DNA of 64,000 bases, taken from the NCBI GenBank assembly GCA_947624245.1, contig CANQJL010000004.1, positions 10,272-74,271 of the forward strand, given 5' to 3'. Shown here piece by piece: positions 6,630 through 61,010 of this stretch. Source of the stretch: an uncultured Acetatifactor sp. (GTDB lineage: Bacteria; Bacillota; Clostridia; Lachnospirales; Lachnospiraceae). How positions within the stretch are numbered: the stretch's first letter is position 1; every line of letters starts with the position of its first letter. The notes under the pieces were generated by a model. The model made no database searches. It saw nothing but the letters and a program-made list of their open reading frames with translations, and was not told the DNA's origin. Position numbers and translations under genes: made by a program.

Positions 6630-7343
6630 TCAGGATTGAAAGGAATCAAGTTTTTTCCCGAATATCCTGCTGTAGCCGTAGTGCAAAGGAATATCGGTCA
6701 TATGGAAAAAGGGCTGTCTGATCTGTGAGTCCGTTTCCGTTCGGTTGGGGCAGGTCATCCGCGCGCAACCGGCGCAGACACCCTGACAGAGTACGGACTT
6801 GTCCCGGGTCAGTTCCGCCACAAAGGCAACGCTCTTTTTCGGGATCATACACAATGCCTCATTGCACCGCACGGGCATTTCAGACCTTGCCAATATCTCG
6901 GGGAGGCGTTCCAGCGGAAAATTTTCCTCGCTTCCCGGGAAGTGATATCTTGCCACACGGAACTCCGTGTGGGCAGCTATATATTGATTGTAGGCCGCAT
7001 AGCCCTCAAGCAGCAGCTCGGCGGTCAAGCACTCCGCCATATAACATTCGGAAAGGAGGTTCTGCGCCAGATATTCTTCCTGAAGCAGATCCGGTCCCTC
7101 TCCCAGAGTCATCAGCACCTCGCTGTAAGCGGGAGCCTGATCTTTCGCAGTATCCTGCGCAGACGGTTCCCTAAAAATTCTGTGTTCCCATCTGGCATCC
7201 CGCCGTATGGAAGGCAGCAGCTTCGACGCCACTTCGGACAGCTCCGCCAGATGCTCTTCCCGATAGTGATATTTTCTCCTTACGTTCTCCAGAAAAGACG
7301 GGGAGGTGAACCCGTCTGTCAGTTCCTCAAAAAAAATGTCCAT
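6630..7343 (-). CDS. Stand-alone B12-dependent methionine synthase activation-domain-like protein
   Basis: MTLGEGPDLLQEEY, YMAECL, HFPGSEENFPLE, CMIPKKSVAF, C-terminal CAGC...CPNR. Confidence 0.65.
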   Translation of the reverse strand: MDIFFEELTDGFTSPSFLENVRRKYHYREEHLAELSEVASKLLPSIRRDARWEHRIFREPSAQDTAKDQAPAYSEVLMTLGEGPDLLQEEYLAQNLLSECYMAECLTAELLLEGYAAYNQYIAAHTEFRVARYHFPGSEENFPLERLPEILARSEMPVRCNEALCMIPKKSVAFVAELTRDKSVLCQGVCAGCARMTCPNRTETDSQIRQPFFHMTDIPLHYGYSRIFGKKLDSFQS

Positions 7344-7372: not shown

Positions 7373-7647
7373 CATTATACCACAAGCGCAGAAAAGGAAG
7401 CACCGCGTAAGCGGTATTTACTTTTCAAGCGGTGGCTTGCCGATAGAATAGGCCGTGTAAACGGCTGCTGCCGATGCAATCGGCAGAAGTTCTGCGTCAG
7501 CAGAACCATTATACCACAAGCGCAGAAAAGGAAGCACCGCGTAAGCGGTATTTACTTTTCAAGCGGTGGCTTGGCGATAGAATAAGCCGTGAAAACGGCT
7601 GCTGCCGATGCAATCGGCAGAAGTTCTGCGTTAGCAGAACCATTATA
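7373..7647. repeat. Tandem duplication of a 134-bp hairpin-rich unit
   Basis: Copies at 7373-7506 and 7507-7640 plus a third CATTATA at 7641; four substitutions between copies. Confidence 0.95.
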
Positions 7648-50210: not shown

Positions 50211-50654
50211 ATGAAGAAAACAGTAAAGAAAATATGTATTGCCGCGGTTCTTCTGTGCGGTGTCCTTTTCGCCGGGGTTGTGTTGATATATGTGATATGT
50301 CCGATTTTAGATAATATTGCACTTTCCCGCTATAAAGAGGAGGTCATATCAGGCTTAGAACTTCCGGACAGCACGGAGATAGCGGAGGTCATAAGCGGCT
50401 GCGGCAATTCCAGTGGAACGGGAAATCATACCGATATGTATGTGGGAATACTTGTAAGGACCGACTTGACGGAGGAGGAATTTTTCAGTCAATATTCTGG
50501 CGAGGCGTATTCCGCACAGGAAAATGAAATGGAAACCTGGGCGATGGGGTGCATCGGTGTATCCTTTGACATGAAGGAAGCAGAGGAAGGTTACTATATT
50601 TTGGAATTTACCGCCGCGGCACCTTATTCGGAATTTGATCTGAGGGGGCATTAG
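50211..50654 (+). CDS. Hypothetical membrane-anchored protein
   Basis: N-terminal TM helix; GNSSGTGNHTD motif; AGGAGG RBS. Confidence 0.7.
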   Translation: MKKTVKKICIAAVLLCGVLFAGVVLIYVICPILDNIALSRYKEEVISGLELPDSTEIAEVISGCGNSSGTGNHTDMYVGILVRTDLTEEEFFSQYSGEAYSAQENEMETWAMGCIGVSFDMKEAEEGYYILEFTAAAPYSEFDLRGH

Positions 50655-51017
50655 GGCTGGGAGCGTTATATCTTTACAAAGGGGTATGAAAATAAACAAA
50701 CAAATAAAGTATATTTTAAGGGCGTAAAAAGTAATGATATGATTTCCAGGCTGGATATTGATAAAATAGTATATTCTGTAAGTGACCAGTTAAAGCCATT
50801 ATATGATTTATTAGGCGTAAAGATAGTAAAATAAAATATCTTTAATATGCAAAAATCATACATTGCAAAACATACTTAATTATGCAGCTTCAATATGAAA
50901 TAGGCGATATTTTGCACCTTTTGCACATTGAGTCCGCTATATTGTACTCAATATGTGCTATTTCTATATGTGCAATGATGCACTTGAATTTTTGACTTGA
51001 ATTTTATTAATAAAGAA

Positions 51018-51046
51018 TTGACAGTAAAATAATCGTGTGATACAAT
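51018..51046 (+). promoter_or_regulatory. cas operon promoter
   Basis: TTGACA-17 bp-TACAAT with an extended -10 TG. Confidence 0.85.
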
Positions 51047-51066
51047 TAACCCAGTTGATACAATCA

Positions 51067-51083
51067 AAGTATAAAATGTCTAG
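51067..51083 (+). promoter_or_regulatory. PAM plus self-target site of the mini-array spacer
   Basis: AAG followed by TATAAAATGTCTAG. Confidence 0.8.
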
Positions 51084-51137
51084 ACAAAAAACTAAAAATG
51101 GAGGGGTTAGTGAAAAATAAATAAACAGTGGTATGAA

Positions 51138-51227
51138 AAGCAGAAAACTACAGGGGGGATGAACCATATAACATGTCTAGCAATACCTTGGTTGTGTCAA
51201 CTCCCCCACATTTGTGGGGACGATTGG
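51138..51227 (+). ncRNA. CRISPR-like mini-array (degenerate repeat - 32-nt spacer - degenerate repeat), candidate cas-regulating RNA
   Basis: First repeat ends GGGGATGAACCA; second has the stem CCCCAC-ATTT-GTGGGG; spacer matches 51070-51083. Confidence 0.85.
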
Positions 51228-51243
51228 GAGGAGAAAACAGAGC

Positions 51244-53874
51244 GTGCAAAATACAAATATAAACATCCTTAAAAAAATATGGGCAAAAACCACACCGTTC
51301 CAATCGATCGTGGCGCATTCGCTAAATACATCAGCGATTGCACATGCTCTGTTGACAAAAGGAACGCTACATCCCGTTTTGCTGGACATAACTCTGTGGG
51401 TATACGGAGACCGCTCTGCCGAACATGCGGACAGGACATGTGCCTTGGTCGAATATTTGGCTTCGCTCCATGATATGGGGAAAAATTCCCCCTATTTTCA
51501 GGTAAAACATGACGAAAAAGGGGTCTGTAAACTGCTTGGGAGCCAACAGCTGGTGGAGGATTACTGCGATGAAATCAAAAAGTTCCGGCATGAGAAATAT
51601 TCTGAAGTGGTTTTGAAACGAATATGGAACGATAAAGAAAGATTTGAGTCGGCGGACACAAGTGACTGTACCGTTCGCTATTTTTCCGGTATTGCTGCCC
51701 TTCATCATCAGGGGAAGAGCGGACATGGGCATGAGATTCAGGACGACGAAATAAAAATAATCTGGCAGCAGCAACAGGATATATTGGAAGAAATGATGTT
51801 TGAACTTTTTCGACCGCCAAGTGTTGTCGTGAATAGCAAGACAATGGAACATGTTTCGGCAGTGTGCATGCAAATTCTCGGTACAATTATCTTGTCGGAC
51901 TGGTTGGCATCAAGTGGGGCGTTTTCAGAAGACGAACTTGAAACACAGGATATCACAGGTAAAGAATATTATGCAAAGGCTGCAAAAAAGGCAGATGATC
52001 TGGTAAGGGAGTCGAGGCTGTCTTTGACGGTGCTTCCGGAGGAAACGTGTTTTTCAGGTATTTGGAAAAATATTCCGAAGGAGAAAATGCGCCCGCTCCA
52101 GATTGTTACTGAAAAACTTATGTCGGATGACAAGAAACCGCTTCTTTTTCTCGTAGAGGCACCAATGGGTGAAGGAAAAACAGAGGCAGGAGCCTATGCG
52201 GCTTTTCAAATGGGCAGATATTACGGGAAAGAGGGCTTTTATGTTGCATTGCCGACATCAGCTACCGCAAATCAAATGTACGATAGAATACGTTGTCTTA
52301 TGAAGAGTTTGTTCCCAGAAAAGGAGGTAAGATTGCTTCACTCGTTGGCGTGGTTGATGGACGAGAGTACAAGGGAAGAAAAAGAATTTGCACTGGAAGA
52401 TAGGGAATATGCGATGAAATGGACGCAGCCTCTTCGCAGAGGCCTGTTGGAGGGATATTCCGTGGGGACGATTGATCAGGTCCTGATGGCGGCATTATAC
52501 GTGAAATATGGTGCGGTTCGTCTTTTGGGAATAGGGAGTAAGGTGCTGGTTTTAGATGAAGTACACGCTTATGATGCGTATATGCAGGATATTCTTATTA
52601 AGCTGTTGTCGTGGTGCAGGGAATTGAGAGTGCCGGTGGTGATGCTTTCCGCCACGCTTCCCAGTGTAACAAAACAATCCATATTAAAGGTTTACGGTAT
52701 CATGGACAGAGTGGAACAGGATTATCCGGCAATTACTTCTGTGTTCGAAGATGAAACATATTCGGTGGCTCCGATTCCTGATGTATCGTGCAAAAAAGAA
52801 GTGAAGATCAGCATCATACGAGAATTGAATCAGTGGGAAGCAATCAGCAGGCGTGCTATTCATATGGTGAGGGAAGGAGGCTGCATTTGTATTCTCGTCA
52901 ATACGGTGGGAAATGCGCAGCAATTATATGAGACAATAAAAAAGGACAAGCCCGAAGAGATTGAGATTTTTCTGTTTCATGCTGCTTTTTCTGTGAGAAG
53001 AAGGCAGCAAATTGAAAAAGAAGTAGTGAATTGTTTTGGAAAGGATAAGACAAGACGGCCTCAGAAGGCAATCTTGATTGCCACACAGGTTGTAGAACAG
53101 TCGGCAGATGTGGATTTTGACAGCATGATAACGGAAATTGCCCCGATAGACTTATTGCTGCAACGTATGGGGCGTGTGTTCCGGCATGAAAATACCCCAA
53201 GATCCCGCGTGTGGAAGGTCCCGGAATTGACCATTCTTGTACCGGAAAATGGGAATGGCTACGGGGTGAGTGAAATTATTTATCCGAAAATATTACTGGA
53301 AATGACACAGCAGTATCTGGCAAATCATTCGTGTATTCGCTGTCCGGAATCAATACGGGAGGCGGTGGAGAGCGTATATAGTGAAGACTCGGGTTTTCAG
53401 GCGGATTTAGAGCACTGGATGGAATATCAGATGGAACAGGGGCTGAAGCATTCTCAGGCAAAAGTCCAAGAATTAATCTTTCCGGACAATAAGTTTAAAG
53501 TTTACAAAACAGGAAGCCGAGTAGAAGAATTGTTTGACGATACAGAGACAGATTCTTTTCTTTCCGCCAAAACAAGACTGGCGGAACCTACTGTGCAAAT
53601 GGCGATTCTCTCTCCGGAACTGTACCGTCAGGTATTGGACACACAGTGCGTATCCAAAGAGCTTGCCAAAGAGGTCTATTTAAATTCTGTTTCCGTTGCG
53701 GAACGCAAAATAAAAAAATATTTTCCAGACTTTCAGCGGACAATGTTGTCGGGAAACGGTCCATTGAAACATATTTTGATTCTTTCGGAAGAAAATGGAC
53801 GTGCGGAAATTCGGGACGGCGTGTTTTGCGAGTTGGGAGATGAAGTAGGCTTTCGAATATGGGAGGTGAATTAG
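51244..53874 (+). CDS. cas3: Cas3 HD nuclease-helicase
   Basis: HDMGK, HHQG, SDWLAS, APMGEGKT, DEVH, SAT, QRMGR; GTG start after GGGAGGAG. Confidence 0.97.
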   Translation: MQNTNINILKKIWAKTTPFQSIVAHSLNTSAIAHALLTKGTLHPVLLDITLWVYGDRSAEHADRTCALVEYLASLHDMGKNSPYFQVKHDEKGVCKLLGSQQLVEDYCDEIKKFRHEKYSEVVLKRIWNDKERFESADTSDCTVRYFSGIAALHHQGKSGHGHEIQDDEIKIIWQQQQDILEEMMFELFRPPSVVVNSKTMEHVSAVCMQILGTIILSDWLASSGAFSEDELETQDITGKEYYAKAAKKADDLVRESRLSLTVLPEETCFSGIWKNIPKEKMRPLQIVTEKLMSDDKKPLLFLVEAPMGEGKTEAGAYAAFQMGRYYGKEGFYVALPTSATANQMYDRIRCLMKSLFPEKEVRLLHSLAWLMDESTREEKEFALEDREYAMKWTQPLRRGLLEGYSVGTIDQVLMAALYVKYGAVRLLGIGSKVLVLDEVHAYDAYMQDILIKLLSWCRELRVPVVMLSATLPSVTKQSILKVYGIMDRVEQDYPAITSVFEDETYSVAPIPDVSCKKEVKISIIRELNQWEAISRRAIHMVREGGCICILVNTVGNAQQLYETIKKDKPEEIEIFLFHAAFSVRRRQQIEKEVVNCFGKDKTRRPQKAILIATQVVEQSADVDFDSMITEIAPIDLLLQRMGRVFRHENTPRSRVWKVPELTILVPENGNGYGVSEIIYPKILLEMTQQYLANHSCIRCPESIREAVESVYSEDSGFQADLEHWMEYQMEQGLKHSQAKVQELIFPDNKFKVYKTGSRVEELFDDTETDSFLSAKTRLAEPTVQMAILSPELYRQVLDTQCVSKELAKEVYLNSVSVAERKIKKYFPDFQRTMLSGNGPLKHILILSEENGRAEIRDGVFCELGDEVGFRIWEVN

Positions 53875-55335
53875 TTGATTCATTTTGACGTACTGACAGA
53901 ACCGTGGATTCCGGTCATTGATCTGCAGGGCAACAGGCGGGAACTTGGAATTCTGGACGTGTTGGAACAGGCAGATCGGCTCAGGGAGATAGCCGACTCG
54001 GCAGTTACATATGAATATGGGGTCTTTCGGTTGTTGTGTACTTTTTTGATGGATGCATATCGACCGGAAGAATGGAGTGATTTGCAAAGAATTTATCAAA
54101 CAGGAAAGTTCGATATGCAAATCATTCAAAAATATGTGGAAACGTGCAGACAGGAAGGGGTTTCCTTTGATCTGTTTGATACAGAGACGCCTTTTCTGCA
54201 GGCAAAATTCAATGACATGTATGACAAAAAATTAATTTCTGTTGCTTCACTAAATATTGCACTGCCCAGCGGGAATAATCATGTTCATTTTGAGCATTGT
54301 CTGGAAGATGATCAGGTGATGACTTGTGCAGAGGCTGCCCGTGGCTTATGTGCAATTAATTTGTTCTGCACTGCAGGAGTCCAGGAGTATCCTTCTACGG
54401 TCAATGGCATGCCGCCGATTTATTTTGTATTAGAGGATAAAAATCTTTTTGGCAGCTTGGTTTATTCCATGATATCGAGGGATGAAGCGGGCAATATGTC
54501 GTACAGCGATCCTCCGCCGGTCTGGCGATGCAGGTCAGAAATAATACCAAAGAAAAAGGAGACGGAAATTTCCGTGTTGTATGGAATGATGTATCCTTGC
54601 AGAAGGGTTCTTCTGCAGCCGGACGATGACGGGAATATTCATTGCATGTATCTGTGTCAGGGGAAAAATTATATCGGGTATGATGCCTGGAGAGATCCTC
54701 ATGTCTCTTATCTTTTTCAAGACAAAGGAAGAGTCTCTTTAAAGCCTAACATGGAGAAAGAACCGTGGAGAAATATTACGTCAATTATTGCCGGAAAAGA
54801 TACTGCATTGACTTTTGTTAGAAGAATTGTGGAGGAAAATCTGCTGGAAGATATTGTATTAAAGGTATATAGTGTCGCGACGAATCAGGCAAGCTACCTT
54901 GATATGCAGAAGAGCAGGCTTCGGATGCCATGCAGCATTGCGCAAAGCAGAATTAAGAGTGACCGGATTCTGGAGTTGATTCAGGAAATAGAAAAAATGA
55001 ACAAAGACATTGGGAGATGTCTGAACGAATGTTATGCGGGCACAAGAGGAAATGTTAAAACAAGAAATGCGGTTCGCTCCATACAGACGGGTTTCCTAAA
55101 TTCGTGCAGAGATTATCTGTTGCAGGATATATTTGATGAAATGTCAAGCATTCCGGAAAAAGAGGCTTCGCAGTGCAAGGAAAAACATGTCAGTGTGCTT
55201 AGAAAAAATTGTTTGGGCACATTTGAATATGCTGTTAGGGCGTTTATGTCTACCGGGGCAGAAATAATAAGAGTTCAAAAAGTGCGCAGAGCGCTGATTG
55301 CAACATTATACAAAGAGAAAGGAGCGAAAGACTAG
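53875..55335 (+). CDS. cas8e: Cas8e (Cse1/CasA)
   Basis: FDVLTEPWIPV, FDLFD...PFLQ, PSGNN, LCAINLF; operon position. Confidence 0.9.
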   Translation: MIHFDVLTEPWIPVIDLQGNRRELGILDVLEQADRLREIADSAVTYEYGVFRLLCTFLMDAYRPEEWSDLQRIYQTGKFDMQIIQKYVETCRQEGVSFDLFDTETPFLQAKFNDMYDKKLISVASLNIALPSGNNHVHFEHCLEDDQVMTCAEAARGLCAINLFCTAGVQEYPSTVNGMPPIYFVLEDKNLFGSLVYSMISRDEAGNMSYSDPPPVWRCRSEIIPKKKETEISVLYGMMYPCRRVLLQPDDDGNIHCMYLCQGKNYIGYDAWRDPHVSYLFQDKGRVSLKPNMEKEPWRNITSIIAGKDTALTFVRRIVEENLLEDIVLKVYSVATNQASYLDMQKSRLRMPCSIAQSRIKSDRILELIQEIEKMNKDIGRCLNECYAGTRGNVKTRNAVRSIQTGFLNSCRDYLLQDIFDEMSSIPEKEASQCKEKHVSVLRKNCLGTFEYAVRAFMSTGAEIIRVQKVRRALIATLYKEKGAKD

Positions 55336-55913
55336 TGACTCAAAGTGAAAAAAAAAGAAGAGAAAGCATCGCGGCTTTTATCAAAAGGGTCGATGGGCTC
55401 TCGGATTCAGAAAGATCCATTCTCAAAAAGAATGGCGGAAGGCTTTTGAAAGATGCAGATGCGGCAGCGCTGATGGCATTTTATAAAGCGTTGGGCGACA
55501 TCGACAAATCTATCCCAAAGGATAGAATGTTTCCGATTGCCTGTATGCGCTGTATGTGGGACAGAGAAATTGAACAGGAAAACGCAATTCCGTTTGCCGT
55601 CGCGATGGGGCAGTATTTTCCATCTAAAAGACGAGAAAAATTTTCAACAGAGGGTGGTGAGGAAAACGAAGAGAACAGCAGTATGGAAAGAAGGATGATA
55701 AAGCTGTTGGATCTGAGATGGGACGCAGATGGAATATTATGCCTGAATGTATGGCGAATTGCAAAAATGTTAAAAAATGAAGGAAAAGTAATCAATATGG
55801 TGATTCTTGGAGATGACTTCTGGATATGGAATGCAGAAAGTAAAAAGGTGCAATGCCGCTGGGCGGAAGAATATTATAGAGCAAACAAGGAGGAAGAAAA
55901 AAATGCTGATTGA
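55335..55913 (+). CDS. cas11: Cas11 (Cse2/CasB)
   Basis: Helical 192-aa protein, ERRMIKLLD, ends RWAEEYY; operon position. Confidence 0.85.
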   Translation: MTQSEKKRRESIAAFIKRVDGLSDSERSILKKNGGRLLKDADAAALMAFYKALGDIDKSIPKDRMFPIACMRCMWDREIEQENAIPFAVAMGQYFPSKRREKFSTEGGEENEENSSMERRMIKLLDLRWDADGILCLNVWRIAKMLKNEGKVINMVILGDDFWIWNAESKKVQCRWAEEYYRANKEEEKNAD

Positions 55914-57039
55914 AATTCATATGTTAAAAAATTATCCCCCCACTAATCTGAATAGAGATGATCTGGGGACGCCTAAAACATGTTACTTTGGAGGGACGAA
56001 CAGAGGCCGGATATCCAGTCAGTGTCTGAAACGAAGCTGGCGAAGGAGCACGGCCTTTGAGGAAGCTGTGGGAAAGGAAAATCTTGGAATAAGGACGAGG
56101 AAGATGCCGCTGCTTGTAAAAGAGAAACTTTTGGAAATGGGGGTATCGGAGGAGGTTGCGCAAAAAATTCTCCCGCAGTTGTCCGCCATTGGAAATAACT
56201 CTGCAAAGCCTTATAAGGACCCGACAAAGACGGCTCAGATCGCTATGTATTCGAATCAGGATATTGAGGAAATTGCCAAGGTGGTAAAGAACGAAATAGA
56301 CATGTGCGAAACTGAAAAAAAGATTGAGAATATTAAGTCCAAGACGATTCAGGAAAAGATCACAAATGCAGGAATTCGGCCTGTTTCATTGGATATTGCT
56401 CTGTTTGGAAGAATGGTTACCACAGATGCATTCCGTGATGTAGAGGGTGCCGTGCAGGTGGCACATGCAATATCAACAAATCGGGTAATAATGGAGTCTG
56501 ATTATTTTACAGCGATGGATGATCTTGTTTCCGGTAAAAGTCAGGATGATGCCGGAGCTGCGATGATTGACAATACGGAGTATAATTCTTCCTGTTATTA
56601 TATTTATGCATCCATTGATACGGACATTTTGGAAGAAAATTTAAAAGGTCTGGAAAATGTGCAGGAGTTAAAATCCAAAGCGGTTGCAGGAATGATTGTG
56701 GCGATGGCATTTTCAGATCCAAGTGGTAAACAACATGCATTTGCCGGACATATTCTTCCTTCTGCAGTACTTGTTGAATGCAAGGACAAAAAAATACCTG
56801 TCAGCTATACCAATGCTTTTGCCAAGGCGATCTATCCCGACGAAAAAGGTGATCTTATATATAAAAGTATTTTAGCGCTTTTGGGTGAACAGGGGATAAT
56901 GAAAAAAGATTTTGCGCTTCCGTCAAAAGCTTCCTATTTCTTTTGTTCATCCAGATATAAGGATATTCCTGTGCCAGATGAGATGCAGGTGTGTCATAAC
57001 TATGATGAGGTGGTAAAGAACGTGATTGAATTATTATAG
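55903..57039 (+). CDS. cas7: Cas7 (Cse4/CasC)
   Basis: IEIHML..YPPTNLNRDDLGTPK, RISSQCLKR, DIALFGRM, QVAHAIST, DYFTAMDD. Confidence 0.96.
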   Translation: MLIEIHMLKNYPPTNLNRDDLGTPKTCYFGGTNRGRISSQCLKRSWRRSTAFEEAVGKENLGIRTRKMPLLVKEKLLEMGVSEEVAQKILPQLSAIGNNSAKPYKDPTKTAQIAMYSNQDIEEIAKVVKNEIDMCETEKKIENIKSKTIQEKITNAGIRPVSLDIALFGRMVTTDAFRDVEGAVQVAHAISTNRVIMESDYFTAMDDLVSGKSQDDAGAAMIDNTEYNSSCYYIYASIDTDILEENLKGLENVQELKSKAVAGMIVAMAFSDPSGKQHAFAGHILPSAVLVECKDKKIPVSYTNAFAKAIYPDEKGDLIYKSILALLGEQGIMKKDFALPSKASYFFCSSRYKDIPVPDEMQVCHNYDEVVKNVIELL

Positions 57040-57050
57040 GGGGTAGACCC

Positions 57051-57731
57051 ATGACGGATACGTGTATTATCCTTTTACAGTTAGAAGGTGTGCTGCAGAG
57101 TTGGGGGGAACACTCGCGGTTTGACTATCGGGACAGTGCGAATTTCCCTACAAAATCAGCGCTTGTAGGTATGATAGGATGTGTAATGGGCATACAACGG
57201 GGAGAAAAACGCTTAGAAGAAATATCCAAGCATATTCGGATGGCGGTGCGCTGCGACAGACCGGGAAAGATGTATGTTGATTATCATACGGTCACCGCGG
57301 AGAACAAGATATTAAATGCAGCAGGAAAACCCAGATGTGATACCATCGTGACACATAGAACATATTTGCAGGACGCTTCCTTTTTAGTTGCTATTCAAAC
57401 AGGGACGGAATTGGCACAAGAAATAGTATGTTCCTTTCAAAATCCCTGTTGGCCGGTATATTTAGGGAGAAGATGCTGTATTCCAAGCGTACCGGTATTT
57501 CGGCGGTTGGCAGAAGAATATCATTCATTAGAAGAAGCGATGACGTCAGAACCTTTATCAAAATCTAGTCAAGATCGCGGAGAAATTCCTGAAATGCTTT
57601 TTTATGAGGCAGAAAGTACGGATGGAAGTGGATATGACAGGACTGATGAGATTATAAGCGCAAAAGGGCGATGCTTTACATCCAGGAGAGTGAAGCCTGT
57701 ACGCAAGGAGGGGAAATATGTATCTGAGTAA
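57051..57731 (+). CDS. cas5: Cas5e
   Basis: LEGVLQSWG, PTKSALVG, VDYHTV, YLQDASF, YLGRRCCIPS. Confidence 0.95.
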   Translation: MTDTCIILLQLEGVLQSWGEHSRFDYRDSANFPTKSALVGMIGCVMGIQRGEKRLEEISKHIRMAVRCDRPGKMYVDYHTVTAENKILNAAGKPRCDTIVTHRTYLQDASFLVAIQTGTELAQEIVCSFQNPCWPVYLGRRCCIPSVPVFRRLAEEYHSLEEAMTSEPLSKSSQDRGEIPEMLFYEAESTDGSGYDRTDEIISAKGRCFTSRRVKPVRKEGKYVSE

Positions 57732-58317
57732 GTTTGAAATTAATAGAGATCACCCTTCTGCAAGGCAGGCATTGTGCAATGTTCAGGATTTTCATCGAAA
57801 TCTTATGGCAAGATTTGATACCACGCGCCAGCAGTCCGGTGTTCTGTATCGAATGGATTTATCAAAAAAATGTCCGGTCGTATATGTCTTGTCGAAAGTT
57901 CCTCCTAAGGACATGGCACGCAAAGATATGAAATTGGTGGGCGTCCAGCAGATTGATTCCATGCTGCAAAATATTACAAAAAATCAGCGGTTCAGTTTTG
58001 ATGTTTGTGCGATACCATCAAAAAAAGTCCAGCGAGAAGGGAAAAAGAACAGCAGGCGCATTACTCTTCATTCAGAGAATGAGAGATTGGAATGGATGCA
58101 GAAGAAGGCAAGGCAAGGGGGCTTTCAAATTACAACGATACAGGAAATAAATGCAGTAAATAGCTTTGGAAGCCACGGAAACAGCAGTATGCAACTATGC
58201 GGATACCATTACCAGGGACAGCTTATTGTAGAAGAGCCAGAGAAATTTCGGCAAACATATTGTGAAGGAATCGGTCCGGATAAGGCATATGGTTTTGGAA
58301 TGCTTTTGCTCTTATAA
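57718..58317 (+). CDS. cas6e: Cas6e (Cse3/CasE)
   Basis: MYLSK, HRNLM, GIGPDKAYGFGML. Confidence 0.95.
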   Translation: MYLSKFEINRDHPSARQALCNVQDFHRNLMARFDTTRQQSGVLYRMDLSKKCPVVYVLSKVPPKDMARKDMKLVGVQQIDSMLQNITKNQRFSFDVCAIPSKKVQREGKKNSRRITLHSENERLEWMQKKARQGGFQITTIQEINAVNSFGSHGNSSMQLCGYHYQGQLIVEEPEKFRQTYCEGIGPDKAYGFGMLLLL

Positions 58318-58333
58318 CAGGAGTGGTCATGAT

Positions 58334-59248
58334 TTGAAAAAGGATTTGCGGGAACTCCCTAAATTGCGGGATAGCATCAGTTATGTGTACATGGAACATG
58401 CAAGAATTGAACAGGAAGCCGCTGCAGTCATCTTTGAGGTTGAAGATGGGAAAATACCTGTTCCGGTAGCTTCTCTGACTTGTCTTATGTTAGGCCCCGG
58501 AACAACGATTACTCATGCAGCGGTAAAAACAATAACGGAAAATGGTTGCCTGATCATATGGTGCGGTGAAAATGCAACACGATTCTATGCGAGCGGTATG
58601 GGCGAAACCAGAAGTGCTCGAAATGTTCTGCTGCAGGCGCAACTGTGCATGGATCCGGAAAAACACATCAAAGTTGTCAGAAAAATGTATGAAATAAGGT
58701 TCCCTAATATGCCGACTCAAGGACTGACATTGGAGCAGATTCGGGGAATGGAAGGAATTCGTGTGCGTCAGACATATCAGGTGGCTTCTAAGCAATATGG
58801 AGTAAAATGGCACGCTCGAGACTATAAACAAGACGATTGGGATCGAGCAGATCCGATCAATCGCGCTTTATCGGAAGCGAATGCTATTTTGTACAGTCTA
58901 TGTCAAGCTGCAATTATTTCATTGGGGTATTCTACGGCAATGGGGTTTATTCATACTGGAAAAATGTTATCATTCGTGTATGATATTGCAGATTTGTATA
59001 AGACGGAGACAACAATTCCTGCGGCATTTGAGGCTGCGCGTGGAAATGAGAATGAATTGTCTAGGAATGTACGGATTTATTGTCGTAAATACTTTTCTTC
59101 CGCCGGTATTTTAAAAAGAATTGCAAAGGATATCGAGCAAATATTTTCTATACAGGAGTCGGAAAGCGATTTTTCGAACTCTGTTGGTGAAATTTGGACA
59201 GAGACGGGAAATTCCATAAAGGGTGGGGTGAATTATGGAAAGGAGTGA
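58334..59248 (+). CDS. cas1: Cas1, type I-E
   Basis: RDSISYVYMEH, LMLGPGTTITH, RGMEG..VR, GFIHTG..LSFVYDIADLYK; in-frame TTG start after AGGAG. Confidence 0.95.
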   Translation: MKKDLRELPKLRDSISYVYMEHARIEQEAAAVIFEVEDGKIPVPVASLTCLMLGPGTTITHAAVKTITENGCLIIWCGENATRFYASGMGETRSARNVLLQAQLCMDPEKHIKVVRKMYEIRFPNMPTQGLTLEQIRGMEGIRVRQTYQVASKQYGVKWHARDYKQDDWDRADPINRALSEANAILYSLCQAAIISLGYSTAMGFIHTGKMLSFVYDIADLYKTETTIPAAFEAARGNENELSRNVRIYCRKYFSSAGILKRIAKDIEQIFSIQESESDFSNSVGEIWTETGNSIKGGVNYGKE

Positions 59249-59526
59249 TGAATATCGTAGCATTTATTATTGAATCGGCACCGGACAGCTTGTGTGGAGA
59301 ATTGACACGGTGGATGATTGAACCAAAACATGGAGTCTTTGTAGGCAATGTTAATGCTTTGATACGGGATAAATTATGGGATAAAATCCAAAATGCAGGT
59401 AGGGAAACTAATGCCATCATGATATTCAGCACCGATTCGGAGCAAGGATACTCACTGGAAATGTTTGGTAGTCCCAAAAGGAGAGTTGTAGACATAGATG
59501 GTATTGAACTCATAAAAATCCTGTAA
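59248..59526 (+). CDS. cas2: Cas2, type I-E (no DnaQ fusion)
   Basis: GELTRWMIEPKHGVFVGNV...RDKLW, VDIDGIEL; 92 aa. Confidence 0.95.
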   Translation: MNIVAFIIESAPDSLCGELTRWMIEPKHGVFVGNVNALIRDKLWDKIQNAGRETNAIMIFSTDSEQGYSLEMFGSPKRRVVDIDGIELIKIL

Positions 59527-59545: not shown

Positions 59546-61010
59546 GTATACCCCACGCGAGTGGGGATGAACCGATGATGTAGAGTACACCGATGAGGAG
59601 TGGACAAAGTATACCCCACGCGAGTGGGGATGAACCGCAAGCGCGGCAGAGATTGACCATGCCTTCCAACGTATACCCCACGCGAGTGGGGATGAACCGT
59701 CTGCTCTGTCGTCCGCACACCAAAATTATCTGGTATACCCCACGCGAGTGGGGATGAACCGTGAGTAGTGGTATTGGACTTGTGGAAAGAAGCCGTATAC
59801 CCCACGCGAGTGGGGATGAACCGTATTATATCAGATATAGCACATGACATTAAAACGTATACCCCACGCGAGTGGGGATGAACCGCTAATGGGAAATCTT
59901 GATTATACTATACTCCGTAGTATACCCCACGCGAGTGGGGATGAACCGTAAGACTGGCACAATTAGAGGTATGCGACAGATGTATACCCCACGCGAGTGG
60001 GGATGAACCGGAGAGAGACGGGAAGCCCATAGGACACATATTGTATACCCCACGCGAGTGGGGATGAACCGTCCAAAACCTGCAAGGTTGATTATGTTGA
60101 TTAGTATACCCCACGCGAGTGGGGATGAACCGACAAAACCCACCCCATTGAGCATTACAATTTCTTCGTATACCCCACGCGAGTGGGGATGAACCGATGT
60201 TGTAGTACTTAAAAACACGGCTACTATGGCGTATACCCCACGCGAGTGGGGATGAACCTTCGTCTTGTACTTGTCAATCTTGTTTCTTACAAGTATACCC
60301 CACGCGAGTGGGGATGAACCGGACATAGCGATCTACGGATTTGTCAGCGCGGAAGGTATACCCCACGCGAGTGGGGATGAACCGGAGAAATAGGAGTCTC
60401 TAGTGTCTACCTCGGAACGTATACCCCACGCGAGTGGGGATGAACCGAAGAACGCGAGCGTAGGAAAGAACTGGAAAGCGTATACCCCACGCGAGTGGGG
60501 ATGAACCGCGGAAGAGGGTGCAGACCAAAGCCCTGCCGTATGTATACCCCACGCGAGTGGGGATGAACCGGACTACACCGGGAAGAAGGTGACGGTCGAG
60601 CGGAGTATACCCCACGCGAGTGGGGATGAACCGCTGTCCACAATCATAAACATTTGCGAAAACTCTGTATACCCCACGCGAGTGGGGATGAACCGTGTCG
60701 AATTTATTCTTGCATTTCAGCCCCGTTGGTATACCCCACGCGAGTGGGGCTGAACCGGACAATCAGTCGTTCCTGCGCTTGGACATCTCTGTATACCCCA
60801 CGTGAGTGGGGTTGAACCGCAAGTCGGCTATTATGTCACATTGAAGCAGGACGTATACCCCACATGAGTGGGGATGAACCGACCTTTGCCACGATGCTGT
60901 ATTTTGCTGGAACACGTATACCCCACATAAGTGGGGCTGAACCGACGGCAGAGCTGTTAGTCATCACTTTGGACGTGGTCAGTATACCCCGCCCAAATGA
61001 AAATGTTTTT
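59546..61010 (+). CRISPR. Type I-E CRISPR array: 23 near-complete repeats plus 1 degenerate terminal repeat, 23 spacers
   Basis: 29-nt repeat GTATACCCCACGCGAGTGGGGATGAACCG; degeneration at the right end places the leader next to cas2. Confidence 0.99.

Follow-up and report, generated by a model that had tools for sequence, protein, structure and literature searches.

A CreR-type mini-CRISPR in the cas3 leader of a Lachnospiraceae type I-E operon as a probable Cascade-guided autorepressor

Why should a single-spacer CRISPR-like unit stand in the 5′ leader of a cas operon? The question is raised by a stretch of 64,000 nucleotides (nt) from an uncultured Acetatifactor sp. of the Lachnospiraceae (GenBank assembly GCA_947624245.1, contig CANQJL010000004.1, positions 10,272 to 74,271), hereafter the window; positions are those of the window, and features lie on its forward (+) strand. 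The window holds a complete type I-E locus, from cas3 to cas2, which ends at 59526 and is followed by the CRISPR array, and the 590-nt leader upstream of cas3 contains a promoter, a target site and a degenerate mini-array. A model that had seen only the letters of this DNA (the sequence-only reading) proposed that the mini-array guides Cascade to the promoter of its own operon. We consider it probable, at roughly 0.78, that the leader element is a CreR-type Cascade-guided autorepressor, that is, a mini-CRISPR built into the 5′ leader of the I-E operon. The anatomy of the element, its non-chance origin, its conservation and the co-variation of guide and target with the every-sixth-base signature of type I systems are established here. 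The Cas-regulating class is already known, and the element adds a member to it and no new mechanism.

Mini-array, promoter and target in the cas3 leader

Two degenerate repeat-like sequences flank one spacer-like sequence in the leader, within an operon of the matching subtype. The first pseudo-repeat, psiR1 (51138-51166; repeat family D3), is repeat-like only in its 3′ part (AGGGGGGATGAACCA) and agrees with the array repeat at 16 of 29 positions, all of them in the 3′ half. Its repeat-matching stretch, GGGGATGAACCA, lies at 51155-51166 and includes the 5′ handle ATGAACCA (51159-51166), which matches the ATGAACCG of the array repeat at 7 of 8 bases. The spacer-like guide, psiS (TATAACATGTCTAGCAATACCTTGGTTGTGTC, 32 nt), follows at 51167-51198. 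The second pseudo-repeat, psiR2 (51199-51227; AACTCCCCCACATTTGTGGGGACGATTGG), agrees with the repeat at 17 of 29 positions and carries, at 51204-51219, a Cas6e-type hairpin, CCCCAC-ATTT-GTGGGG; it retains the CCCCAC/GTGGGG stem of the repeat and the A that follows the cut, and ATTT takes the place of the GCGA loop. By analogy with E. coli Cas6e, a cut is expected between 51219 and 51220. psiR1 thus preserves the 5′ handle and psiR2 the 3′ handle with its hairpin. Because each pseudo-repeat retains only the half that matters to a CRISPR RNA (crRNA), and because the spacer seed matches a site in the promoter region of its own operon flanked by a protospacer-adjacent motif (PAM), the unit does not read as an ordinary array. 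psiR2 ends 16 nt upstream of the cas3 start codon, an in-frame GTG at 51244, and the cas3 Shine-Dalgarno sequence GGGAGGAG (51226-51233) stands 10 nt before that codon.

The operon promoter, P1, is a consensus prediction, as are all promoters reported here. It comprises a −35 box TTGACA (51018-51023), a 17-nt spacer and a TG-extended −10 box TACAAT (51041-51046), matches the sigma-70 consensus at 11 of 12 positions (51018-51046), and is predicted to start transcription near 51053. The PAM, AAG on the coding (non-target) strand at 51067-51069, begins 21 nt past the −10 box. It is followed by the target TATAAAATGTCTAG (51070-51083), which agrees with spacer bases 1-14 (TATAACATGTCTAG) at 13 of 14 positions, the sole mismatch being at base 6. 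Spacer bases 15 and 16 mismatch the target side and identities beyond them are scattered; the match to a canonical-PAM site beside the cas promoter is therefore confined to the seed-proximal part of the spacer. The target corresponds to about +18 to +31 of the P1 transcript, or about +15 to +31 with the PAM, and the guide RNA would pair with the template strand there. A second copy of TGATACAAT, an extended −10-like box at 51056-51064, is a direct repeat of 51038-51046; it stops 2 nt short of the PAM, and its start site, if used, would lie inside the target. Apart from this overlapping box, no promoter-like site was found on the + strand from P1 to cas3, and neither a promoter scan nor inspection by eye gave a convincing candidate for a separate promoter starting the guide exactly at 51159. 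Rfam returned nothing relevant in 50600-51400. On re-reading the sequence, the coordinates and letters given by the sequence-only reading were all as it had stated them, including psiR1, the 32-nt spacer, the psiR2 stem with its ATTT loop, the ribosome-binding site (RBS) at 51226-51233, the TTGACA-17-TACAAT promoter, the AAG and the 13/14 match with its position-6 mismatch.

Near cas operons it is common to find degenerate terminal repeats and secondary arrays that have shrunk, and the unit might accordingly be a functionless remnant of an old array or of a local duplication, its 13/14 match being coincidental. Among 20,000 first-order Markov simulations of the 500-nt leader, scored with every sixth base ignored, none gave an AAG-flanked seed match of at least 14, and one reached such a match with any PAM. 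Furthermore, on both strands of the 2.53-Mb genome the guide has no better non-self match than the site at 51070, which stands alone at the top, the next best reaching 12 and having no AAG. The match between guide and target in the leader is not due to chance. Together with this genome-unique match and the simulations, the ten co-varying lineages described below, with AAG at every site and mismatches gathered at bases 6 and 12, stand against a remnant, which the comparative data effectively refute.

Guide and target in related lineages

A DNA search with the leader in 60 related genomes returned no homologue; the leader evolves too fast for such a search, and relatives were therefore found through Cas3, whose closest named records are from uncultured Lachnospiraceae. 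The order promoter, AAG, target, psiR1-spacer-psiR2 and cas3 recurs in ten lineages, namely the window and nine others with Cas3 40-67% identical (designated L015, L018, L020/L001/L021, L026, L024, L002, L023, L030 and L008). In all ten the target is on the coding strand with AAG on its 5′ side, and the PAM is preceded by a TTGACA box at a distance of 35-49 nt; every one of the 12 guide-matching sites found has the AAG flank. Guide and target are identical over the paired region in L018/L019 (Cas3 54%; ATATAAGCGATTGAT, 15/15), L020/L021/L001 (53%; ATATATATGTTTG, 13/13, with two targets), L026 (58%, partial gene; likewise ATATATATGTTTG, 13/13, with a second target mismatched at 6 only), L024 (53%; AGATATGCCTGTA, 13/13) and L002/L022/L027 (53%; AGATGTATGCCTGT, 14/14 and 25/32 overall). 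Mismatches occur at 6 and 12 only in the closest relative, L015 (67%; guide TATAATATATTCAGAA, target TATAACATATTAAGAA), at 12 in L023 (53%; ATGTATGCATTCGAT and ATGTATGCATTGGAT), at 6, 9 and 12 in L030 (51%; ATATATGTATCCAATT and ATATAAGTTTCTAATT), and at 6 and 12 in L008 (40%; TTTTTTAATTGGAT and TTTTTAAATTGTAT).

Between the window and L015, guide and target alike have changed from G to A at base 9 and from C to T at base 11, and bases 6 and 12 differ freely. The joint changes at 9 and 11 after these two lineages split indicate that pairing stayed under selection. Across an alignment in which each pair was represented by the guide and the reverse complement of its target, two-sided changes were found in 17 of 20 guide/target column pairs; the covariation score was 0.659 against 0.254 ± 0.044 in shuffled sets (0/500 as high) and collapsed when the partner was slid by 1-3 columns. 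Within bases 1-13, positions 6 and 12 account for 7 mismatches in 20 cells, all other positions together for 1 in 110 (Fisher p = 5e-6; 3e-5 on independent lineages only). Type I Cascade flips out every sixth base of its guide, and the 6/12 pattern is hence the expected footprint of selection for Cascade binding. Pairing stops after 13-16 bases in nine of the ten lineages, which fits selection against a full R-loop and cleavage by Cas3. The sequence-only reading had itself named the lack of conserved spacer-target pairing in relatives as the finding that would overturn it. The pairing is conserved, and with the shared layout, the two-sided changes, the mismatches at 6 and 12 and the AAG PAM it strongly favours autorepression.

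In L002 (2094-2260), guide and target match at 25 of 32 positions (1-14, 16-18, 20-25, 28 and 30), far more than in the other lineages; this guide could be a younger self-derived spacer that has yet to decay to the 13-16-base state. The structural parts of the element are largely constant. The handle is ATGAACCG, ATGAACCA, GTGAACCG or ATGGCTCG, and the psiR2 stem CCCCAC/GTGGGG with the following A is identical in nine of the ten lineages, L008 having a 5-bp CCCAC/GTGGG variant, while the psiR2 loops (ATTT, AGTT, TTAA, ATAT, ACTA and others) and 3′ tails drift. The same combination of a conserved handle and hairpin with a drifting remainder has been reported for CreA and CreR (Liu et al., bioRxiv 10.1101/2023.03.10.532045).

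Among about 800 further genomes sampled by family and order, I-E systems were rare, and L008 has the layout. The layout was not seen in L032 (Cas3 37% identical), and no mini-array was found by eye in L035; L009-L014 were covered by a search for the CCCC...GGGG hairpin pattern only, which gave no match, and the comparison left out L033 and L034. The sole metagenome match to the guide family of the window and L015, in L031, was rejected as a chance match, being an ordinary spacer in an unrelated I-E array.

Proposed feedback and the leader/guide duplex

The first gene of the operon, cas3 (51244-53874; HD nuclease and helicase), is followed by cse1, cse2, cas7, cas5, cas6e, cas1 and cas2 (53875-59526); these genes are contiguous or overlapping, so co-transcription with cas3 is most likely. 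We propose that a single RNA made from P1 spans the target region, the mini-array and the genes cas3 to cas2. Cas6e would bind the psiR2 hairpin and cut after G51219, splitting the guide precursor from a cas mRNA that retains its RBS. With no psiR1 hairpin available, the 5′ end of the guide would have to arise in another way, possibly through trimming by host RNases, and Cas5, Cas7, Cse1 and Cse2 would assemble on the handle ATGAACCA and the guide. The loaded Cascade would then recognise AAG at 51067-51069 and, through bases 1-5 and 7-14 of its guide, pair with the template strand at 51070-51083; this site, at about +15 to +31, would fall inside the footprint of initiating RNA polymerase. A partial R-loop of 14 bp would permit binding and fall short of the full R-loop that recruits Cas3, and it is therefore proposed that transcription is blocked without self-cleavage. 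Since the stretch from the target to cas3 holds no further promoter-like site, and since psiR2 ends so close to the start codon, the whole operon, with cas3 and the guide included, is proposed to be under this control. In this way cas3, Cascade, cas1-cas2 and also the guide would be subject to negative feedback. Array crRNAs would compete with the guide for Cas proteins, and the feedback should relax when they or Cascade inhibitors draw these proteins off the guide. Such relief by abundant crRNAs and anti-CRISPRs comes from experiments in Salmonella, in which repression by CreR is relieved by crRNA abundance and by AcrIE8, and in Moraxella (10.1101/2023.03.10.532045).

The leader RNA is also predicted to form a long-range duplex with the guide. 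Its 5′ arm (51053-51072) comprises the start of the leader, the second TGATACAAT box, the PAM and the first three target bases, and its 3′ arm (51183-51202) comprises spacer bases 17-32 and the first 4 nt of psiR2. The 20 positions form 17 Watson-Crick pairs, 2 G-U pairs and 1 mismatch, and the G-U pairs indicate structure at the RNA level. The duplex has a predicted energy of −23.1 kcal/mol, which none of 1000 shuffles (−5.2 ± 2.0) equalled. L015 has a duplex of its own made from a different sequence pair (GGCAGCGCG with CGCGC..TGCC, about 7332-7340 with about 7414-7427; −16.8 against −8.3 ± 2.6 kcal/mol, p = 0.005), and the duplex is absent from the other lineages. A partner for the guide's 3′ half in the DNA strand displaced upstream of the PAM was also considered and was rejected on geometry, the guide being held stretched along Cas7; the duplex between RNA segments was the sole reading retained.

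One tentative and on the whole unlikely extension of the autorepressor is that the leader works as a cis-coupled circuit of one transcript and two products, with a maturation route undescribed for I-E guides. Each transcript would then yield, by cleavage at psiR2, one guide precursor and one cas3-to-cas2 mRNA. The duplex, kept by compensation between the window and L015, would act as a site for a double-strand-specific RNase, as a protector of the 5′ end, or as a mask on the guide until Cascade assembles. The clade would use the promoter/target cassette as a socket for cargo, such as a holin-like peptide, an anti-Shine-Dalgarno-like small RNA or a YhcG nuclease.

Several observations weigh against autorepression in the window. 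The last base of the psiR1 handle is A and not G. The left arm of the psiR1 hairpin is lost, no C-run being available to pair with GGGGGG, and the usual route by which Cas6e makes a 5′ end is thus closed to the guide. The duplex, which engages the 3′ half of the guide, could mask the guide. Two related lineages have no working element, L025 showing none and L003 a psiR1-like remnant with a 7-nt match only. Finally, guide and target are direct repeats on one DNA, and gene conversion or repeated self-acquisition could also yield matching changes. These two processes are less likely, however, since both would leave unexplained why the PAM is invariant, why mismatches gather at 6 and 12 and why pairing usually ends at 13-16 bases.

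Some of these points would also follow if the element were real in the lineage and the window copy were impaired or decaying, with an insertion of about 50 nt that removed the psiR1 arm, a handle changed from G to A, a trapped guide, little or no active guide produced and an unrepressed operon. The distance from target to handle is 75 nt in the window against 22-46 nt in seven of the other lineages, all the closest ones included (25 nt in L015). Most other lineages have kept the psiR1 hairpin through compensatory changes (CCGCCA/TGGTGG, CCCCTA/TAGGGG, CCCTC/GAGGG and CCCAC/GTGGG), and the leader/guide duplex of the window is strong. By contrast, the seed, the PAM, the psiR2 hairpin and seven of the eight handle bases are intact, and the changes shared by guide and target at bases 9 and 11 postdate the divergence from L015. 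L024 likewise has no tight psiR1 stem, and the handle of L002 is ATGAACCA, the same as in the window. L015 has a psiR1 hairpin and a duplex together, so the duplex is no sign of decay, and the window leader is unchanged in two further metagenome samples. We thus regard decay of the window copy as improbable.

Cargo in relatives, known systems and the array

The distance between target and psiR1 in the window is taken up by a lineage-specific filler of about 54 nt (51084-51137), which contains an SD-like (Shine-Dalgarno-like) GGAGGGG and small open reading frames (mini-ORFs): MEGLVKNK-stop at 51098-51124, VKNK-stop at 51110-51124 and MKSRKLQGG-stop at 51133-51162, the last running into psiR1. 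The filler admits another explanation, in which the guide is a CreA-type guard of a CreTA addiction module and the first product of the promoter, either the GGAGGGG with the mini-ORFs (51098-51162) or the leader RNA, becomes toxic when Cascade is lost or inhibited. The strong SD before a 4-codon ORF in the window is in keeping with this, as is the cargo that relatives carry between target and mini-array, a 33-amino-acid (aa) peptide in L023 and a YhcG/PDDEXK nuclease gene in L008, and a second AAG-flanked target before a small RNA-like unit in L020, L021 and L026. Nevertheless, the filler has no counterpart in L015, so the conservation of the element does not extend to the mini-ORFs; no hydrophobic peptide is encoded by them, and a rare-codon trap is not obvious. 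With P1 as the sole promoter of the operon, control of the cas genes is a direct consequence of the geometry. As for a toxin gene at the guide-targeted promoter, the window shows the unconserved mini-ORFs only, and candidate cargo occurs in relatives. An addiction module in the window is considered highly improbable. The GGAGG region of the filler is loosely like the RBS of the L023 peptide gene and may be a remnant of lost cargo.

The cargo in relatives takes three forms. In L023 (768-1275), the order is promoter (768-796), AAG with a target that matches the guide (813-830), peptide ORF (926-1027), terminator-like hairpin and mini-array (about 1190-1270). The 33-aa peptide is hydrophobic and has a weak match to Hol_Tox (E = 0.035, below the cut-off), and cas3 has a 12/12 promoter of its own (1371-1399) without a target; the arrangement resembles a guard of the CreTA kind whose toxin is a small protein. 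L020 (6843-6975; the same in L021) and L026 (about 300-405) carry, upstream of the promoter of the cas3 leader, a further target copy with an AAG flank; in L020 and L021, which were read far enough upstream to show it, this copy follows its own TTGACA-17-TACAAT promoter. Behind this second target comes a unit of about 70 nt with CACCUCC or CCUCC, resembling the anti-Shine-Dalgarno tail of 16S rRNA, and a strong hairpin, GTGTCAGCATATA...TATATGCTGACAC, which is a candidate guide-controlled small RNA. In L008 (180-1486), a gene for a 346-aa YhcG/DUF1016 PDDEXK nuclease (350-1390) lies between the promoter/AAG/target cassette (180-231) and the mini-array (about 1400-1470), which abuts the cas3 RBS; the cargo is therefore inside the guide-controlled unit.

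The statement of the sequence-only reading that the class was known is correct, an I-E instance having been tested in Salmonella. In the I-E system of Salmonella enterica, CreR pairs through 15 consecutive bases beside AAG and gives about 8.6-fold Cascade-dependent repression (10.1101/2023.03.10.532045). The window element resembles it as a degenerate psiR1-psiS-psiR2 in an I-E cas locus, with the 5′ handle in psiR1 and the 3′ handle and hairpin in psiR2, and in the match of about 15 seed-proximal bases to an AAG-flanked site at a cas promoter, for which repression was shown in Salmonella. Unlike Salmonella CreR, which acts on the casA/cse1 promoter, the window operon begins with cas3, and the nuclease gene is placed under the same control; furthermore, the window target lies between promoter and guide, so that the guide appears inside the transcript that it represses, and the window psiR1 has no hairpin. 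Mini-arrays have been predicted in about 19% of bacterial I-E loci, and repeat-like sequences occur in 25-29% of the untranslated regions flanking cas3 (Shmakov et al., bioRxiv 10.1101/2023.03.03.530964; PMC10120712). In that study, partial matches of at least 10 nt adjoin a canonical PAM, position-6 mismatches were noted and base-flipping was invoked, and cargo and toxin genes under mini-array control were described (PMC10120712). In its I-E examples the mini-array lies between cas3 and cas8e with the target downstream at the cas8e promoter, whereas the window target is upstream, before cas3, and the hairpin-bearing copy is the downstream one.

For the I-B system of Haloarcula hispanica, as relayed by Liu et al., CreA is a guide of limited complementarity with which Cascade represses a promoter without cleavage, the cas8 promoter also being repressed (Li et al., 2021, via 10.1101/2023.03.10.532045). 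The window element is, like CreA of CreTA, a degenerate crRNA-like guide of limited complementarity; unlike CreA, which guards the RNA toxin CreT, it has no credible toxin in the window, with L023, L020/L026 and L008 carrying cargo at the equivalent place. Partial complementarity of a natural guide also makes the effector repress its own promoter in the cases of tracr-L (Streptococcus pyogenes II-A) and CreR (Moraxella bovoculi V-A). Both of these serve single-protein class 2 effectors and have other RNA architectures, unlike the Cascade of the window. Phage mimics of such regulatory guides have been described; a search of IMG/VR for phage-borne (Cracr-like) mimics with three handle-plus-seed patterns gave no match.

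Compared with the described I-E cases, the window element would thus differ in its promoter-target-guide-cas3 order, the presence of cas3 in the regulated unit, the missing psiR1 hairpin and the leader/guide duplex. It would extend CreR-type self-regulation from enterobacterial I-E loci, where it has been tested, to an I-E clade of gut Lachnospiraceae. The ten co-varying pairs, in which change is tolerated only at every sixth base and pairing nearly always ends at 13-16 bases, form an unusually clean natural data set and provide an evolutionary read-out of the amount of pairing that Cascade requires for binding without cutting. Placing both the Cas3 nuclease gene and the guide under control of the guide predicts a tighter, self-limiting feedback than in E. 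coli or Salmonella. For annotation, such leaders should not be read as junk or stray repeats, and they may offer compact natural parts for Cascade-based repression.

The array itself (59546-60944; repeat GTATACCCCACGCGAGTGGGGATGAACCG) has 23 repeats, degenerate at the far end, and 22 spacers. BLAST of 103 spacers against the genome of the window gave one protospacer: the spacer at 60322-60355 matches a phage tail-protein gene (phrog_6616; contig C34:20686-20719, minus strand) at 30 of 34 positions, with AAG on the 5′ side and mismatches at bases 2, 4, 6 and 10. AAG as the PAM of the window system is supported by this prophage protospacer as one independent data point. The spacer is self-targeting and yet tolerated, which the seed changes in its target would explain. 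The arrays of the window, L015 and L018 had no match in the phage collection, and three spacer prefixes had none in IMG/VR. The neighbouring spacer at 60385-60418 is similar to that at 60322-60355, as though one gene had been captured on two occasions from variant phages. Spacers of I-E arrays in E. coli are typically fixed at 32 nt; those of the window (59575-60915) are 32-35 nt long, mostly 33-34 nt, and the repeat spacing in L015 and L018 is likewise spread, over 60-63 nt.

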